This document shows, piece by piece, positions 500 through 44,948 of a DNA stretch of 64,000 nucleotides. Position 1 is the stretch's first letter; every line of letters starts with the position of its first letter. The notes under the pieces were generated by a model. That model was not told the DNA's origin. It was given only the letters and a program-made list of their open reading frames with translations, and did no database searches. The DNA is taken from the NCBI RefSeq assembly GCF_016432865.1, contig NC_067402.1, positions 102,982,001 through 103,046,000 of the forward strand, read 5' to 3'. The position numbers and the translations under genes were made by a program. Origin of the DNA: Antechinus flavipes (Eukaryota).

Positions 500-1420
500 T
501 TAGATTTCTCTTGAGTTCTGTGCTTGTAGATCAAATTTTTTGTTAAGTTCTGGCTTTTTCATCAGAAATAGATGGAATTCGCTTACTTCGTTGAATGTCC
601 ATCTTCTTCCCTGGAAAAAGATGCTCATTCTCGCTGGGTAAGTTATTTTTGGTTGCATACCAAGTTCCTTAGCCTTTTGGAATATCATATTCCAGGCCCT
701 TCGATCCTTTAATGTGGATGCTGCCAGATCCTGGGTGATCCTTATTGTGGCTCCTTGATACTTGAATTGGGTTTTTCTAGCCGCTTGCAGTATTTTTTCC
801 TTCGCCTGAGGGTTCTGGCATTTGGCCACTATATTCCTTGGTGTTTTGATTTTAGGATCCCTTTCAGTAGGGGATCGATGAATTCTTTCAATGTCTATTT
901 TACCCTCTGTTTCTATGACTTCTGGGCAGTTCTCTTTGATAATTTCCTGGAAAATAGTGTCCAGGCTCTTTTTTTCATCATACTTTTCTGGAAGTCCGAT
1001 GATTCTCAGGTTGTCTCTCCTGGATCTGTTTTCCAGGTCTGTTGTCTTCCCCAGAAGGTATTTCACATTCTTTTCCATTGTTTGATTTTTTTGGATTTGC
1101 TTGACTGATTCTTCTTGTCTCCTTGAGTCATTCAATTCCAATTGTTCGACCCTGATTTTCAGTGAGGTATTTTCTTCACTCACTTTTTTAAGATCTTTTT
1201 CTAATTGTCCAATTGAGTTCTTTTGTTCTGTGGAATTTTTTTCCATTTCGCCAATTTTGTTTTCCAGTTCACCAATCCTATTTTTCAAGGATTTGGTTTC
1301 TTTATCCACTCTCTCTTTAACTGACTTCTCCAGGCTCTTTTGCCAAGCCTCCCTCTCCTTTTCCCATTTTTCTTCTAGCTCCCTTGTGAGAGCCTTTTTA
1401 ATTTCCTCCATGAGATTCAT
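500..1420 (-). CDS. LINE-1 ORF1p (coiled-coil, RRM, CTD), 306 aa from an internal ATG; the native start at 1559 is out of frame
   Basis: Motifs DLENRSRRDNLRIIGLPE, IERIHRSP, PRNIVAK, KEKILQAARK, IRITQDL, RRAW and YPARMS are hallmarks of L1 ORF1p. The frame stays open upstream to about 1530, then meets TAA. ATG AGC AAG AAG CTG at 1559 is 139 nt upstream of 1420, i.e. shifted by one frame. Confidence 0.92.
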   Translation of the reverse strand: MNLMEEIKKALTRELEEKWEKEREAWQKSLEKSVKERVDKETKSLKNRIGELENKIGEMEKNSTEQKNSIGQLEKDLKKVSEENTSLKIRVEQLELNDSRRQEESVKQIQKNQTMEKNVKYLLGKTTDLENRSRRDNLRIIGLPEKYDEKKSLDTIFQEIIKENCPEVIETEGKIDIERIHRSPTERDPKIKTPRNIVAKCQNPQAKEKILQAARKTQFKYQGATIRITQDLAASTLKDRRAWNMIFQKAKELGMQPKITYPARMSIFFQGRRWTFNEVSEFHLFLMKKPELNKKFDLQAQNSREI

Positions 1421-1559
1421 CTGTGCTGAGGAACATATGATCTCCTCCTTTGGGGATTCACCTGGGGACTGCCTGTTTTTAGTCTCCTCAGGATTTAGAG
1501 TCTGCTCTCTATCTGTATAGAAGCTGTAGGGTTAAATTCTTTTTCAGCTTCTTGCTCAT

Positions 1560-5680: not shown

Positions 5681-6409
5681 TATTCTCCGTTGCAGAAGGG
5701 ATTTTTGTGTTCAGTGAAAAGCTCCTTCCAGCTCTAATAGCCTGTGATTCGATGATTCTTCCGGATGGGAAGAAAATATTGCAGCCGCATTATGCAAAGT
5801 CAATGTCACTACACCCCACGCAGACTTAATGTCACTGTGCACAGAGAAAATGTCAACATGTACAGGAAGGGGACAATCAACCTAATTTACTCGACTTACA
5901 ACCCCCTAGTATTTCCTGGCTCTGTCTTTCCTATGTGTTTCTCCCTGATAATTCAGCCTGCAAGTCTGAGCACAGGTCATTCACTATCCTTAGGGAAACA
6001 GTAAACAAAGATAAGAGCTTCAGGCCCTGGAATTTATTTTTTATCCACTCAGCCTAAAAGCAACTGCATGTTAAATTTAGAAAGCTTGATTCCAGACCCA
6101 TCCCCCCATCCCTCCCCTTTCCTGCCTCCTCTTAATTCTCCACATCCCCAGCGCGGTCTCTGCTGACCCATGCAACATGAAATATCATGTTGATCCAAGT
6201 ATAGGCCACCCTCAAATTTAGGTGACTCTGCTAAAAGAGCTTATTTTAGGAGAAAAAAATATTCACGGGGGCATCGATGATGGAAAATAACACCAGTTAT
6301 AAGTCATACTCAGATTTTACACAAGGCAGAAGTAAAAACCAGCTTATATTGGGGCCCATCCAGTGTTTTGAAAACCAGGGTGTTACTTAAAAACATTTCA
6401 ATATCAACA

Positions 6410-6604
6410 GTTCTTAATCTGGAATCTATGAATTTGTATTTTTAATATGTTGATAACTACATTTCAATATAATTAGATTACTTTGTAGTTCTGTATATTT
6501 TGTTATGCATTTAAAAACATGATTCTGAGAAGGGGTTAAAATAAAAAGGGCTTTTATTGGAGTGCCAAAGGGTTAGGTGACACAATCAATTCTCTGAACC
6601 CCTG
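6410..6604 (+). mobile_element. hAT MITE (Charlie4z-like)
   Basis: ttcttaatctg...tgcatttaaaaacatgattctgagaagggg...gaacccctg; homologous to the 3190-4125 copy. Confidence 0.7.
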
Positions 6605-7666
6605 CTCTATTTGCTCATTAGCAGGTATTATCTAACGAGTTGGGAGGACCAATTGAGGGCCATTTCCTCCACTATCCATTCCCCTGTTTCTTTTAGGAGC
6701 AATCTTATTTTTCACCTGTTTATTCCCATTTAACTTTCACTGAAATGCCCTCCCGAAGTCTCATTATGGCACAGAGGTGATGGAGCTTGTGGAGAATGGG
6801 GAGAGAGAGCGACTTTCAGTCTCTCATCTGAAGATCAATCTGAGCGCAGAGATGCTTGGCAACTTATCACGTATGGACATATTGTTGGCAGGCCGTTTCT
6901 TGGATTCGACTGTGAGCTTCTGAAGGTCAGAGATTGCTTTTACCTTTCTTTGTATCCTCAACACTCAGGAAATGCTTCCTCAATGCTTGCCGACTCCATT
7001 TTTTGTTGACTGGACCAGAGCATTGGTCACAAGATGGTCTAGCTCCTTGACCATGGTAATTTTCGAGGACTGGCTCCCAAAGCTTGGAGGGGTTTCAATA
7101 TGTGTGGGTAAAAGGAGCACCCACAGGGATGAAATCCCATATCTTTTGAAGTATTAAAGTGTTTACCCAAATATATACTCAGGATAATTTGTTCTGTGCT
7201 TTTCACTCACACATCTGTTGGGTGGGACACCAATAAGAAAAACATACTCCAAATTTAGCTGGGCAATTTCCAATTTATTTTAAAAAGCACGCCTCACAGT
7301 TTGTGAGTCTCTAATTGAATAGCTCTTTCCTATGTAGGTCAGATCCCATTGGAACCGGCTCCAAGAGCCTGGACAAATCCTCTCATTGCGCCGGCCTCTG
7401 GTCTAGTGAAACTGATTCGAAATAAGTTTGGCCAGAATCTCTTGATTAGAGAGAGATCTCACTGTGACGGAGCTTGTGCTAAGTGGGATTCATCCAATAT
7501 CGCCTCAGACACCCCTTGAAGTGCTCACCAGCCTCAGTTCATTTAAATAGATTAAGAATCATAGAAGGTTTGAAATGGAAGAGACCTCCAAGGATCACCT
7601 AGCCCAATGCTCTCTTATGGATGGGGGTCGGAGGTGCAGAGAGAAAAAGAAACTTTTCCAAAGGAA

Positions 7667-7999
7667 NNNNNNNNNNNNNNNNNNNNNNNNNNNNNNNNNN
7701 NNNNNNNNNNNNNNNNNNNNNNNNNNNNNNNNNNNNNNNNNNNNNNNNNNNNNNNNNNNNNNNNNNNNNNNNNNNNNNNNNNNNNNNNNNNNNNNNNNNN
7801 NNNNACTATGGACGGGGAGAGAGACTGACAGANNNNNNNNNNNNNNNNNNNNNNNNNNNNNNNNNNNNNNNNNNNNNNNNNNNNNNNNNNNNNNNNNNNN
7901 NNNNNNNNNNNNNNNNNNNNNNNNNNNNNNNNNNNNNNNNNNNNNNNNNNNNNNNNNNNNNNNNNNNNNNNNNNNNNNNNNNNNNNNNNNNNNNNNNNN
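7667..7999. other. Assembly gaps (N 7667-7804 and 7833-7999) around a 28-bp island; further gaps at 8958-9159, 22049-22192 and 27206-27360
   Basis: N runs in the sequence; several abut GA-rich simple repeats. Confidence 0.99.
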
Positions 8000-8759: not shown

Positions 8760-9180
8760 CAGCAGAAGGAAGGGAGGAAAGAAGGAAAAGAAAAAAGAGA
8801 AAGAGACAGAAAAGAGAAAGAAACAGAGAAGGGGGAAAGAAGGGGGGAGAGAGAAAGAGAGAGTGAGGAATGGAAAGAGGAAGGAAGAAAGGAAGGAGGA
8901 AAAGAAAGGAAGGAAGAAAAAGGAGGGAAAAGGAAGAAAGGAAAGAAGGCAAGAAGGNNNNNNNNNNNNNNNNNNNNNNNNNNNNNNNNNNNNNNNNNNN
9001 NNNNNNNNNNNNNNNNNNNNNNNNNNNNNNNNNNNNNNNNNNNNNNNNNNNNNNNNNNNNNNNNNNNNNNNNNNNNNNNNNNNNNNNNNNNNNNNNNNNN
9101 NNNNNNNNNNNNNNNNNNNNNNNNNNNNNNNNNNNNNNNNNNNNNNNNNNNNNNNNNNNGGGTGGAAAGGTGGGAGGGTG
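8760..9180 (+). repeat. GA-rich polypurine low-complexity tract, partly gapped
   Basis: Near-pure A/G sequence on both sides of the 8958-9159 gap. Confidence 0.95.
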
Positions 9181-25570: not shown

Positions 25571-27899
25571 GTAGGGGTTTGCTATCTGATTCTTTGGAGG
25601 GAGTGCCCACAGGGACAAAATCACAGATCTGTGAAAATATCCAAATATCAAAGCTGACCTGGGGAAAAAGTAAAACCCCAGTGGACACACAAAAAAGGCT
25701 GACATGGTAAAAATAGCAAGCTGGAGAGGTAGATGTGATCAGAGAATGAACGTAGGGAAACACATATTTGTCAAATCAGATAATGGTGCTCAAATGTTGA
25801 GATACTTGGGGAAATGACCAGTCCTTGGTCTGGAGAGGGAATGGTGGAGTGGAGAGAGTATTGGACTTGGAATTACAATTGCATTTCTGCCATTTAATAT
25901 CTGTGAAAGATTGGAAAAGTCAAGTCATTTCTCTGGCCCTCCATTTTGTTGTCTTTAAATGAGAGTTGGATGAAGTGGAGAGGGGACCCTTCCAGCTCCG
26001 CAATTCCATAAATTCCCAGACTGCTATAGACCAGAAATTCTCCCCTGGAGGTAAGAAGGCTTCTCTGGAAATGAAGTGGAATTACCTCCCCAGAGTTGGC
26101 CAACCACATCCTTATGAAGGCAGAATTCAAAATTTCCAGAAGCTTAGACCATGGATGCTTCCTTTCCCCCCAGGGGAAAAAGTGAAAAGTTCAGGCTTTC
26201 TCACAGTTTTCATGGGAAAATGCCTGATTTTCCTTTTGAGAGACCCACCCTGAGGCGACATTATAATTTAAAATTTACTTTATACATTCATACATCCTTA
26301 TTTCCTGTTTCTTTTCTCTCTCCCTCTCTCTGTATCTCTGTTTCTGCCAGTCTTTCTCTCCCTCTCCTTCTCTCTTTCCCCCTTCTTCTTTTCCTTTCCC
26401 TCTCCCTCCCTCCTCAACAAGTCATATTTGCTTGCTGTTAAAGCCAGGCTTTAGACTTCCATATTTTCACTTTCAGAGAAATTTTATAGTTTTTTTTTTT
26501 TTTTTTATGTTACATTTTCTGATCTGTTTGTCTCTTGTTCTGTGGAGCCAGATGTACCTTTTCTTGGGTTTGGTCCTTGTGCCCTGATTGATATTGTCTG
26601 ATATCTGGTCACTGTGACATTGTTTGGAGAAAGAAGAAAGAAGATTTACCCTGGCATAAAGTGACATAGTTGTCATTGACTGCCATTAGCAAAAAACTGC
26701 CTTACACTGGATTAAAGGGGTTCCTTACAAACTTTAAATAAATGGTGAATTTGAGGGAAAGTTGAAAAAATAAAGACTTTTAAAATACCAAAGCATGTTA
26801 ACTAACTACATAACCTTGTAGTTTAATATGATAATAAGCAGCTGTATTATATTATGCAAATATATGTTAAGTTATTCACAACCTCTCATAATATTCCAAT
26901 AAAAATTCTAGATATGACATTTAGAAAAAATGACATCTTCTGATAATTGTTTTGCTTCATATTTCAGTAGCTACGATTGCCTTTTATCTGTATCTTCTTT
27001 CACCTGTCCTCTCTGCTTTCTTTCTGCCTTTGAAGAATATGTGAATATCTTCTTTGCCAAATCTAATATTGAATCTTTTCTCTTAGTTTTATTCCTCTCC
27101 ACCTTCTTTGGGAAACTGTACCATCAATCCTCTTCTTTCTTTCACATAGTCAACTCTTCTTTCAATATCTCCGGTACTTAACACAGTGCCTAGTACATAG
27201 TAGATNNNNNNNNNNNNNNNNNNNNNNNNNNNNNNNNNNNNNNNNNNNNNNNNNNNNNNNNNNNNNNNNNNNNNNNNNNNNNNNNNNNNNNNNNNNNNNN
27301 NNNNNNNNNNNNNNNNNNNNNNNNNNNNNNNNNNNNNNNNNNNNNNNNNNNNNNNNNNNNACAAATGTGCTCATATCTCCCTTATCCTAAAGTATATCAT
27401 TTCTCCCCCCGGCTATATCTGGAGGAGATATATAGTCTATTTCCTCACTATTTACTGGTATGACTTACATCTGCCCTTTATTGAGTCTGCTAACCCAGTC
27501 CCCTTCCATTTCCTATCTCTCTGACTGTGTACTCCTTGGGTGTGTCTCCCGGGCTTCCACTTGCCCCCTCTCTCTGCTCTGTCCTTTAGAGATCTTGTCT
27601 GCTGATACGCCTTTTCATCTCTTACCTCCATGGAGATAACTCCCAAATCCCATCCTCATCTCTGACTGGCCCAGGTGCAGCTTTCTGGACCAGACCGGAT
27701 TTCTGGCCCTGACGTTCACTGGGAGAGGGACCAGAGGTAACTTCTCTGAATCTAAGTTCCTTTATCTATAAAATGGGAACAATGGACCCAGAGTACCTAT
27801 TTCACAGAGATGTTTTAAGAAAGGTACTTTGAAAACCCTAAAGCTCTCTATGAAGAGTTGTCATCTCTCTGAAATTTCTTTTTAATCTCTCTTATCCTT

Positions 27900-40620: not shown

Positions 40621-42145
40621 GAATAAGGACTCCTTTGGCAGTTTGCTGATGCCCACTGAATCCTCAGAATAATGTTTGCAAACAATTGAAAGAAATGATA
40701 AATTTCAGTTAGAAGTCATTGAAAATAAAGAGGTATTTTTTTTACATCTAAATTTTCCCTATCTAAATCCACAGACTTTCTGAATTCTATCCATGGTTAA
40801 GAACTGCGGTCTAGAATTTTGCCAGACTAAATTGACCAGGGTAAGGATCATTCTCAATCAGGCCTTTATAGGAGCTATGTTTCTTTAGGGTTTTCCCACT
40901 TTGCAAATTACAGAGCTCCAAATCTTTTTCAACAATCGAGGCCTGACTAGAATTCTAAAATCCTTAAAGAAAAGGAAATCTGTTATACTCTATGACTCTG
41001 AGCTCCCGCTACCCGCGGGGAAATTACCTGCCTGCTGGGATCCAGCAGAAGAATAACTCTTCAGCTCTTTAGCCTTATCTCCCTACATTTAAATAGGAGG
41101 CTATCATGGCCATACCTGATGATGGCCACCTGACCAACTTCTAGGTAGTACCCTTAATTCCAGTTGTCAGCCAACTGCATTTACATCAACTCAGTTTCCT
41201 GTCTAGGCTGTCTTTCTGGTTATTTCTACACTGTCTCCTTTTTTGAAAAACCCAAAGTTTTGAAAAATCCCAAACAACAAGTAACACTCACCACCAGCCC
41301 TGGCCCTGATGATGATTCACCTTTTTAGGTTGATTCTCCCATGATTCTCCTCCTCCATCACAGACCACACACCTGGCTGACTCGCCTTCCTTAGGGCTGT
41401 ACCAAGAAGCCGTACATTTCCCCTAGGACAAGGAATTGGACTACTAACTGACATGTTAGTCCAGATAAGTTAAACTGGCTCATCCATTAATAACTTAGTA
41501 ATTGTAATCATGTAACCTCAAGTCTTCCAAAGGTCCATGGATCCATTTTCTTTGATCCTGTGAGTGTTTTCAGAAACATTTCCCAGTGATGAAAATATCT
41601 CGGGCTAGAATTCTGCAAGACGGGAAGCAGATGCTGAGATCCTGACCTTCTCACCTTCCTCTCAGGCTCTAACATCAATTTGCTTACAAGAAACCTGGCT
41701 TTTGGAAAATGAATTACCATTCAAGTACCCCCTCTGAGATATAAAATTCCATGATCGTAGGGAAGTCATTTAACTCATGAGTGCCCTAGGAAACCTTAAG
41801 ACTCTAAAGTACATAATAGTCAATCCACCTGCATTAGTAAGAGTTTTCTATATTACTGATTCTACTTTTTTCACTATCTTTATTCATGTAGTGTAATGGG
41901 CTGAGGCTTGAGTTGATGCACTGAGGTCCCAAGCACATGAGGCTAAATAGTAATTGGACCATACTCTATTAATAGATAAGCTTGGAGAGAGAATGGCCCC
42001 CACCCACTCTTTGTGCAAGTCCTGATGTGTTGTATAGGAAATGACGATTTTGGTGGGTGGAGGCAGGGGAGTGGAGAAGGAAGGGGAGGAGAGACTTTTG
42101 GGACGGCCATTGCCACAGTTGCCGACACAGTTGCCTCCATGGTTG

Positions 42146-42320
42146 CTGCCTCCACCCACCAAAATCGTCATTTCCTATACAACACATCAGGACTTGCACA
42201 AAGAGTGGGTGGGGGCCATTCTCTCTCCAAGCTTATCTATTAATAGAGTATGGTCCAATTACTATTTAGCCTCATGTGCTTGGGACCTCAGTGCATCAAC
42301 TCAAGCCTCAGCCCATTACA
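42146..42320 (-). mobile_element. Internal LTR U3 copy B (175 bp)
   Basis: Exact reverse complement of 41892-42066. PPT immediately upstream on the minus strand (from 42321). Confidence 0.92.
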
Positions 42321-42848
42321 TCTCCCGCTTTCTTTTGTTTTAGAACACAGGTGATCATGCCATCCCTGACTCCTCAGGGAGGTCAGAGCCCCCAAGGGGA
42401 GGTGATCACACCCTCCCTGATTTCTCAGGAAAGGAGGTGAAAGCACCGAAAAGGAAGTGATCACGACCCCCCTGACTTCTCAGGAAGGGAGGTGAAAGCA
42501 CTAAAAAGGAGATAATCACGCCCTCCCTGACATCTCAGGAAGGGAGATGAAAAGCACCAAAGGGAAGTGGGGGTTGCTAGCAGGTTTCTGGGCTCAAGGG
42601 TCTTATTATGCACAAACCCATCAGCATGGGAACACATAGCACATAGCAACAACGCAGAGACTATTAGTGATGACTCTCCCCACAGTCAGTGCAGGCTTGA
42701 TGTGTTATAACAAACATGAATTATGCACCCAAGTAACGGTATAACAAACAATATAAATCAACAGTATGATGTAAAAGATTGCCAGAAGTCCTAGAAGGAG
42801 AGTATGTAAACAGCAGTCACACATACACCTCTTCAGCAGCCAAGAGAT
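42321..42848 (-). mobile_element. ERV 3' internal (pre-LTR) segment ending in a PPT
   Basis: On the minus strand it runs into ...CTAAAACAAAAGAAAGCGGGAGA|TGTAATGGG. No ORF recognised. Confidence 0.75.
42351..42567. repeat. 51-55-bp tandem repeat (4 units) in the ERV internal segment
   Basis: Units start at 42351, 42402, 42457 and 42512 (gtgatcac..cc.ccctgacttctcagga..ggaggtgaaagcac..aaaagga). Confidence 0.9.
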
Positions 42849-43044
42849 TCCCCTTCCTTCTCCACTCCCCTGCCTCCACCCACCAAAATCGTCATTTCCT
42901 ATACAACACATCAGGACTTGCACAAAGAGTGGGTGGGGGCCATTCTCTCTCCAAGCTTATCTATTAATAGAGTATGGTCCAATTACTATTTAGCCTCATG
43001 TGCTTGGGACCTCAGTGCATCAACTCAAGCCTCAGCCCATTACA
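42849..43044 (-). mobile_element. Internal LTR U3 copy C (196 bp)
   Basis: Reverse complement of 41892-42087. The PPT and 82 bp of internal sequence are repeated at 43045-43126 (= 42321-42402, one mismatch). Confidence 0.92.
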
Positions 43045-43126
43045 TCTCCCGCTTTCTTTTGTTTTAGAACACAGGTGATCATGCCATCCCTGACTCCTCA
43101 GGGAGGTCAGAGCCTCCAAGGGGAGG

Positions 43127-43201
43127 AGATGGCTCAGTGGATAGAGCACTAGCCTTGAAGTCAAGAGGACCTGAGTTCAAATCCAGCCTCAGACACTTAA
43201 C
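43127..43201 (+). mobile_element. WSINE1/MAR-like SINE 5' fragment captured inside the ERV composite
   Basis: atggctcagtggatagagcactagccttgaagtcaagaggacctgagttcaaatccagcctcagacacttaac. No tail and no TSD of its own. Confidence 0.85.
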
Positions 43202-43459
43202 AAACAGAAAAAGTGACCTGAGCCAACCGTGGCAATGGCAATCCCAAAAGTCTCTCCTCCCCTTCCTTCTCCACTCCCCTGCCTCCACCCACCAAAATCG
43301 TCATTTCCTATACAACACATCAGGACTTGCACAAAGAGTGGGTGGGGGCCATTCTCTCTCCAAGCTTATCTATTAATAGAGTATGGTCCAATTACTATTT
43401 AGCCTCATGTGCTTGGGACCTCAGTGCATCAACTCAAGCCTCAGCCCATTACAATGTAG

Positions 43460-43780: not shown

Positions 43781-44948
43781 TATGGAAAAATTAATGAATA
43801 AGACTTTAATTTTGAACCAGAAACTCCCCTTGTCAGACAAGCAACTGTTCTGAAAATTGTACTCTGCAAGAGTTCCCCAGAGTTATGAAAAATTGAGTGA
43901 CTTGTCTAAAGTCCTAGGACTTAACCCAACTAGTATTTTGAAGGATTTGAAGATAAACTGATGTACCTACACTACACTTGGGTGATATAGGGGATAAAAT
44001 ACTGGGCCTAGAGACAGGAAGATCTGAATTCAGATATGTGTGTGGCCTTGGACAACTTAATAACTTAATAAAATTCTTCAGTTTCCTCAACTGTAAAATG
44101 GTAATAATAATAGAATGTACTTCAAACATGCAGCAAAATTCTTTTTCCTTGATTCTACCCTTCCCTGTTCTACCTTAGAGAAGGCTACCATTAGACTTCT
44201 TATATTTTCAAAAAGGATATACTTGGTCTGTATGTACAGCAATCTTATGAACATTTTATACAGATAAAAAAGTGATTGTTATTGTGAAGATCAAATGCTT
44301 AGCATGGTGCTTAAAATGTAGTAAGTGCTATATAAATACTAACCATTAATATTATTGCTTTTTAATATTTATTTTTTATATAATAGTGTTTTATTTTTCA
44401 AAATATGTACAGATAGTTTTCAACATTCACCCTTGCAAAACCTTGTGTTAAAAATTTTTTTCCCTCCCTTCCTTTTTCCTTCCACCCTCCTCTAGATAGC
44501 AAGTAATCTAATATAGGTTAAACATGTGCATATAAATATTATTGTTATTGTTATTATTACACCATGGCTATCATACACTGTCCCCTCCAAAAGAGAGGGC
44601 CCACATAAATGCCTGCTTTCTTATCGGTATAAAATGTTCATAAAAATGCTGTCCACACAGACCAAGTATATCCTTTTTGAAAATATAAGAAGTCTAATGG
44701 TAGCCATCTCTAGGGTGGGGCAGGAGAGGGTAGAAATAAAGGGAAAAGAAATTTACATGATAATTTTGCTATATATTTGAAAAGAATTGTGCTTTGTAGA
44801 TTTGCAATTTTATGTATGATCATCTTTTTATTGTACTGTTATGGGAATGCTCATTTTATTCTATAAATATGTATTAATGTAAAAAAGAGGAAAAGAAAGG
44901 TAAATTTTCTTCCCTCTTTTTACATATCTCCCCCTCCTCCCCAACATT

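Follow-up and report, generated by a model that had tools for sequence, protein, structure and literature searches.

How can a retroviral insertion come to end in the U3 tip of its LTR on both sides, and what placed it in the genome? The question is raised by a unit of 1,562 bp (41892-43453) in the window analysed here, a stretch of 64,000 nucleotides of Antechinus flavipes contig NC_067402.1 (positions 102,982,001 to 103,046,000, forward strand). A preliminary description of the locus had proposed a fold-back retroviral insertion with inverted arms and a mosaic interior. Our analysis suggests that the unit is, with reasonable probability, an aberrant cDNA of an active endogenous retrovirus (ERV) that was inserted by integrase, a variant of the aberrant-cDNA insertions already known.

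Structure of the unit and its target site

The unit starts with TGTAATGGG and ends with CCCATTACA, its first nine bases recurring inverted at the other end. Recomputation reproduced the architecture as first described: the outer arms (41892-42121 and 43224-43453) are 230 nt each and 99% complementary, they are identical over 212 bp since mismatches begin only at LTR position 213 (the first being 213, 214 and 226), and the hexamer ATGTAG stands on either side. The left LTR copy continues beyond its 230-nt arm to 42145 (254 nt). The inverted repeat does not extend into the flanks, and both termini correspond exactly to LTR position 1, with no polypurine tract (PPT) and no base lost or added, which leaves TG...CA at the exact att ends as in a retroviral integrase product. 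The proposed assignment of both arms to the U3 end holds as well, the internal copies of the LTR being preceded by a PPT and the terminal copies adjoining host DNA. Searching for TG...CA inverted repeats of at least 15 nt with a direct flank of 4-6 bp returned four matches in the window, namely the unit and three sub-matches within its arms. As far as the window can show, the feature is real. The coordinates of its parts are collected in Table 1.

An older inverted pair (44142-44272 and 44616-44746, 86% complementary) with a 20-nt outer pair lies 700 bp from the unit, at 44121-44781. It has no other copy in the window, encloses a repeat fragment with three other window copies, and could be an old inverted duplication or else a pair of LINE ends in opposed orientation.

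Table 1. Components of the U3/U3 unit and its target-site duplication (TSD), in window coordinates.
Feature	Position	Strand	Remarks
Left TSD copy, ATGTAG	41886..41891	+	within old antisense L1 3' fragment
Left arm L, MEBrv3-type LTR positions 1-254, U3 att end	41892..42145	+	no preceding PPT; family by eye
Internal LTR copy I1, positions 1-175	42146..42320	-	perfect 175-bp inverted pair with L, 79-nt loop
PPT before I1	42321..42336	-	position the same and sequence nearly the same in MEBrv3 record
Single contiguous 512-nt piece of MEBrv3 3' region	42337..42848	-	by-eye collinearity with record ~6278-6795
Internal LTR copy I2, positions 1-196	42849..43044	-	
Second PPT and final 82 nt of 3' region	43045..43126	-	duplicates 42321-42402, one substitution at 43115
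tRNA-derived host SINE piece, antisense to viral strand	about 43120..43228	+	
Right arm R, LTR positions 1-230, U3 att end	43224..43453	-	no preceding PPT
Right TSD copy, ATGTAG	43454..43459	+	old L1 fragment resumes in register

The DNA on either side of the unit is part of a single old L1 3' fragment in antisense orientation. Each flank was aligned separately to all four window members of this L1 family (D8), in place of a noisy alignment with cheap gaps. In two of the four copies, the left and right ATGTAG fall on the identical six L1 bases (19387-19382 and 34434-34429; shuffle controls 0 and 0 of 200, and 3 and 0 of 200). The hexamer coordinates overlap with an offset of ~4 nt in the third copy, and the fourth is too diverged (9 and 20 of 200 shuffles). 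Because both hexamers hit the same bases of uninterrupted L1 copies, ATGTAG is a true TSD, as had been claimed. The flanks match directly at a length of 6 only, among lengths 3-11 tried, and a 6-mer match would arise by chance about once in 2,600 given the flank composition. With the paralogous L1 copies standing in for the empty allele, a single hexamer appears to have been duplicated and no flank lost. Elsewhere in the window, a 343-codon open frame (500-1531, minus strand) carries L1 ORF1 domains (PF02994, E 4e-12); it gave the only Pfam match among the 30 of 158 long ORFs scanned. The ORF scan, which spliced exons would escape, identified no host gene in the window.

Relationship to MEBrv3

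By-eye comparison with one record suggests that the LTR, PPT and interior match marsupial endogenous betaretrovirus 3 (MEBrv3). MEBrv3 is described as an env-less, IAP-like betaretroviral element of dasyurid marsupials and averages 67.5% of the ERVs across five dasyurid genomes, being the dominant one (PMC11334065). Judged by eye, 54 of 60 bases match at the LTR start (41892-41951), 83 of the 91 bases before the 3' LTR match 42411->42321, and ~530 nt (record ~6278-6795) are collinear with 42848->42337. The match points to a dasyurid host. The betaretroviral character at which the preliminary description had hinted through the TSD length agrees with this match. So does the expectation that parent and unit share a TSD length, which is 6 bp in both (one case in the record, where the PBS directly follows the 5' LTR; PMC11334065); TSDs of the kangaroo element KERV-1 are reported as 5-6 nt (PMC5711953).

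The unit resembles the record, by eye, in its collinear 3' region with 55-nt repeats, its PPT and its 6-bp TSD, and differs from it in lacking gag/pro/pol, leader, PBS, U5 and poly(A) signal and in having its terminal LTR parts inverted. It is thus derived from MEBrv3, by eye, without being an MEBrv3 provirus. Its LTR is a different variant from that of the record: it does not have a ~60-nt U3 duplication and diverges after position 212. The record LTR is 469 nt long, with AATAAA ~400 nt in (PMC11334065), while L, which has a TATA-like motif at LTR position 142, ends ~80 nt short of the position of that signal. The last bases of L match 9 of 11 nt of the record LTR at about the same distance (by eye). 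A U5 identity for the right end of the unit was rejected, the record's U5 end sharing only 5 nt with it by eye, and a DIRS or DNA-transposon identity was rejected on the PPT and LTR homology.

No piece of gag, pol, leader, U5 or PBS was found in the unit, and neither AATAAA nor a PBS-like motif after CA is present on either of its strands. None of the eight unit ORFs scanned (8/8) gave a Pfam match with E below 0.05. Homologues were found neither for a 74-aa interior ORF (0/27 candidates, longer proteins only) nor for a 101-aa ORF spanning the fold-back (0/7 candidates), and Rfam had no match within the window.

The 55-nt tandem repeat just upstream of the PPT (42349-42569, minus strand; ~3.5 copies), also present in the MEBrv3 record, folds well as RNA (z -3.6, 0/200 shuffles), a score that repeats can inflate. 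The env-less IAP and MusD elements carry RNA export elements, and by analogy of position the repeat is a candidate for such an element. The last bases of the gammaretroviral MEGrv 2 record in the supplement of PMC11334065 resemble the 55-nt repeat unit by eye.

A mosaic interior

Read in viral sense, which is the minus strand of the window, the unit runs LTR 1-230, an antisense SINE piece of ~100 nt, 82 nt of 3' UTR and PPT, LTR 1-196, 528 nt of 3' UTR and PPT, LTR 1-175 and, inverted, LTR 254-1. The viral pieces derive without exception from LTR 1-254 and the final 528 nt of the internal region. Three LTR copies have one polarity, and both internal ones (42320->42146, 175 nt; 43044->42849, 196 nt) sit after the same purine tract. 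The 512-nt piece leads from within a degraded env remnant, via the 55-nt tandem repeat, to the PPT; that it might itself be a mosaic was considered and rejected, as it is one collinear piece.

The 5' end of the SINE overlaps the viral 3' region at their junction, with homeology of 10/11 nt. The SINE piece aligns to 11 window copies, at best with 65 of 82 aligned bases matching, and two of these 11 alignments start at 43120/43121, which we take to be the SINE's own start. The window holds no close donor, only two 16-mers being shared outside the unit.

The LTR segments present in four, three and two copies show no substitution in 795 copy-bases, which sets an upper bound of ~0.4% per site. Once the SINE overlap is set aside, the remaining mismatches between copies, all outside these segments, are one substitution (43115) and one dinucleotide change at LTR 213-214. 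The mismatches were also considered as proof of two RNA genomes, an argument that we rejected since 43127, and possibly position 226, lie in the SINE overlap. The low divergence suggests that the insertion event is young, unless gene conversion masks its age.

L differs from R at positions 213, 214 and 226 and carries LTR 231-254, absent from R; no 12-mer of 42100-42145 recurs elsewhere in the window. Within L, positions 213-254 contain a 10-nt internal repeat (0/2,000 shuffles), and R 222-230 fits L 246-254 as well as it fits L 222-230 (8/9 each). Two of the four LTR stops (175 and 196) fall within a run of 85-95% purine, which, speculatively, may stall reverse transcriptase. This run (LTR 161-200, 42052-42091) is G-rich, with a G4Hunter-like score of up to 1.84.

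Origin of the two U3 ends

That integrase can pair two same ends is known from experiments in the test tube and with swapped att sites. Exact U3 tips combined with a real TSD of the family length are best read, as in the preliminary description, as a DNA with U3 at both ends that integrase inserted, and whichever route produced this DNA, integrase likely used two U3 ends. The enzyme joins the two processed 3' ends at positions separated by a few bases, a spacing that fixes the TSD (PMC5041404). Exact U3 tips on both sides and a TSD of family length thus suggest that PPT priming defined each of the two ends.

The same description had offered, as one route, a single plus strand that switched templates and then snapped back to copy its own 5' end. 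The terminal complementarity, perfect for 212 bp, speaks for such a strand, and because R 222-230 fits both sites in the internally repetitive segment of L, slippage could link the arms, which may share one LTR stop. Self snap-back is nevertheless insufficient and highly improbable. L 231-254 is missing from R and from the rest of the window, and the arms disagree at 213, 214 and 226, so that, slippage apart, one arm is not wholly a copy of the other as in a strict copy-back genome. Moreover, a staggered 6-bp duplication needs two 3'-OH ends and a panhandle gives only one (CA-3'-OH), so a second PPT-primed strand is needed anyway.

We consider it fairly probable that, during aberrant reverse transcription, two plus strands, each primed at the PPT, became linked in one cDNA with U3 at both ends, and that integrase then inserted this cDNA in the normal way. 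Within one particle, a PPT-primed plus strand would have copied LTR 1-230 and stalled before U5 and the PBS, which would make the normal second strand transfer impossible. Its 3' end would have jumped to a host SINE RNA and run off the 5' end of that RNA, re-entered the minus-strand DNA 82 nt upstream of the LTR and copied through the PPT to LTR 196, then re-entered again 528 nt upstream and copied to LTR 175. The growing strand would next have paired with another plus strand, also primed at the PPT and spanning LTR 1-254. Fill-in of both strands would have yielded a linear duplex ending in a U3 att site on either side, and integrase would have inserted this duplex concertedly, duplicating 6 bp. 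From the anatomy of the unit, its TSD and its family match we infer that reverse transcriptase made the jumps, in this order, that the SINE template was RNA and that integrase was the inserting enzyme. In favour of this course, every viral piece derives from the 3' end of the genome and spans the PPT in a single polarity. The SINE, antisense to the growing strand, stops near its own 5' end, as run-off would give, and the zero LTR divergence fits one recent event. In addition, multi-LTR elements with one TSD in plants have been attributed to template switching before integration (PMC1950507). Against it, junction homology is weak or unseen at three of the four junctions: none is visible between LTR 196 and the 3' region (as compared with a record ~90% identical) and perhaps 3 nt at the fold-back. 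The coincidence with the SINE 5' end is also confounded by a G run common to both sequences.

Similar mosaics are possible without reverse transcriptase, since host polymerases are described as extending viral DNA ends with several stretches of viral and host sequence, added in either orientation (PMC5041404). Two separate cDNAs could each have contributed a U3 end to the same intasome, with the inner ends sealed after concerted strand transfer by host end-joining or repair synthesis, which may have added templated pieces; this second route of the preliminary description we regard as unlikely. It has the same two PPT-defined ends and the same TSD outcome, accommodates the positions at which L differs from R together with the additional sequence of L, and draws on the described capacity of host repair for appending multiple segments (PMC5041404); the 10-nt repeat inside L 213-254 is of a kind that junction synthesis can yield. 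The end of L resembles the record LTR, however, and may simply be ordinary LTR; at 278 and 703 nt the pieces are long, and all of them cross the PPT in one polarity; and no SINE donor lies nearby, whereas in PMC5041404 the templates described are nearby DNA. From sequence alone, this repair and the reverse transcription that we favour are indistinguishable.

A 5-nt terminal inverted repeat common to U3 and U5 also counts against our preferred reading, as a later template switch could retain the TSD. A normal MEBrv3 provirus would then have come first and made the TSD, and a replication or repair switch through the 5-nt U5/U3 repeat would have replaced everything beyond LTR 254 with inverted pieces of a provirus 3' end and a SINE piece. 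At its U5 end the record reads TTACA, which is the first five bases of the unit's variant in reverse complement, so the TSD would survive; one provirus could supply all the viral pieces. The zero divergence does not discriminate between this and the other routes. We nonetheless judge such a history quite improbable, as the breakpoint must hit one 5-nt window at the LTR tip when 5-nt microhomologies abound everywhere, five switches are required, and the host flank is intact, with nothing lost or duplicated beyond 6 bp.

Finally, the structure might be an artefact, a gapped assembly having wrongly threaded a young, high-copy LTR family. Five runs of N, 138-202 nt long, interrupt the window (7667-7804, 7833-7999, 8958-9159, 22049-22192 and 27206-27360), several adjoining GA-rich sequence, which suggest a short-read scaffold. 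MEBrv3 is the dominant dasyurid ERV (PMC11334065), and the 703-nt stretch from the fold-back junction to the LTR 196 junction consists wholly of family sequence. An artefact is very unlikely all the same: the junction of the reverse U3 with unique flank has only 5 nt in common with a genuine U5 end, too short an overlap to mislead an assembler into joining the two; no repeat within the window exceeds 261 nt, and unique junction k-mers lie between the repeats; the closest N gap is more than 14 kb away; and the flanks rejoin in register. The copy number of the interior is more exposed to misassembly than the U3/U3 ends are.

Comparison with known aberrant insertions

Copy-back defective genomes of RNA viruses arise when an RNA polymerase copies its own product, and they keep replicating. 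Like the unit, they have complementary termini derived from one genome end; the unit differs in being DNA, in needing a second strand and in having no signals for re-copying.

Insertions with three LTRs and one TSD (PMC1950507; bioRxiv 10.1101/452573) share with the unit several LTRs, internal segments and near-identical outer LTRs, and have been attributed to pre-integration events. As far as these sources describe them, their LTRs stand in a row around internal cores and are most often complete, whereas in the unit each of the four LTR copies is truncated at its 3' end, one of them is inverted, and U3 forms both termini. One-ended aberrant integrations of HIV and ASLV likewise extend viral ends with viral segments, in either orientation, and host segments, one end being inserted by host enzymes with large duplications or deletions (PMC5041404). 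In contrast, both host junctions of the unit are exact, as integrase leaves them, its flanks are in register and the mosaic is internal.

Defective HTLV-1 proviruses without a 5' LTR have 6-bp repeats and form before integration (PMC6950816), while among HIV proviruses asymmetric LTRs were reported in 26 of 88 and inversions are rare (PMC9278108). Such proviruses resemble the unit in that integrase accepted an abnormal cDNA, or in the strand-transfer errors of reverse transcriptase, and differ from it in retaining the U5 end; none with two U3 ends is described in the parts of these reports consulted (PMC6950816; PMC9278108). The literature searched, mostly at the level of listings and with thin coverage of older subscription virology, yielded no natural insertion with U3 at both ends.

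Fate and possible mobility

Without U5, PBS or poly(A) signal, the unit was probably dead on arrival. It most likely records a one-off copying accident and is probably a single insertion made by the MEBrv3 machinery, not a family; the 64-kb window contains no second copy of its architecture. Nor does it qualify as TRIM-like, as the PPT is present twice but PBS, U5 and poly(A) signal are absent. The preliminary description had also raised a non-autonomous, TIR-like family with retroviral att ends, here with 6-bp TSDs, an idea that finds no support in the window. In such a mobile class, RNA from the right-arm promoter would fold on the 175-bp hairpin and self-prime reverse transcription without tRNA or PBS, and MEBrv3 integrase would re-insert the product, a scheme to which we give very little credence.

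L and I1 (41892-42320) form a perfect 175-bp stem with a 79-nt loop, an unstable near-palindrome, and the U3 promoters face each other across the unit. Together, the hairpin and the facing promoters are a possible source of hairpin or antisense RNA. A milder idea than the mobile class, less improbable but still doubtful, is that independent U3/U3 by-products recur across MEBrv3 and IAP bursts, are missed by LTR finders and yield hairpin or antisense RNA against the active family.

Significance

If confirmed by reads, the unit would be a natural germ-line record of an intasome that accepted two U3 ends and still cut the normal 6-bp stagger. Being a single dead copy, it carries little evolutionary weight. 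It would preserve, in one short and nearly unmutated molecule, a failed plus-strand transfer and the capture of a host SINE. Such units would escape any LTR finder that relies on direct repeats, and a TIR finder might annotate them as DNA transposons. For the ERV family itself, facing U3 promoters and a 175-bp hairpin may offer a route by which an active element seeds double-stranded or antisense RNA against itself.
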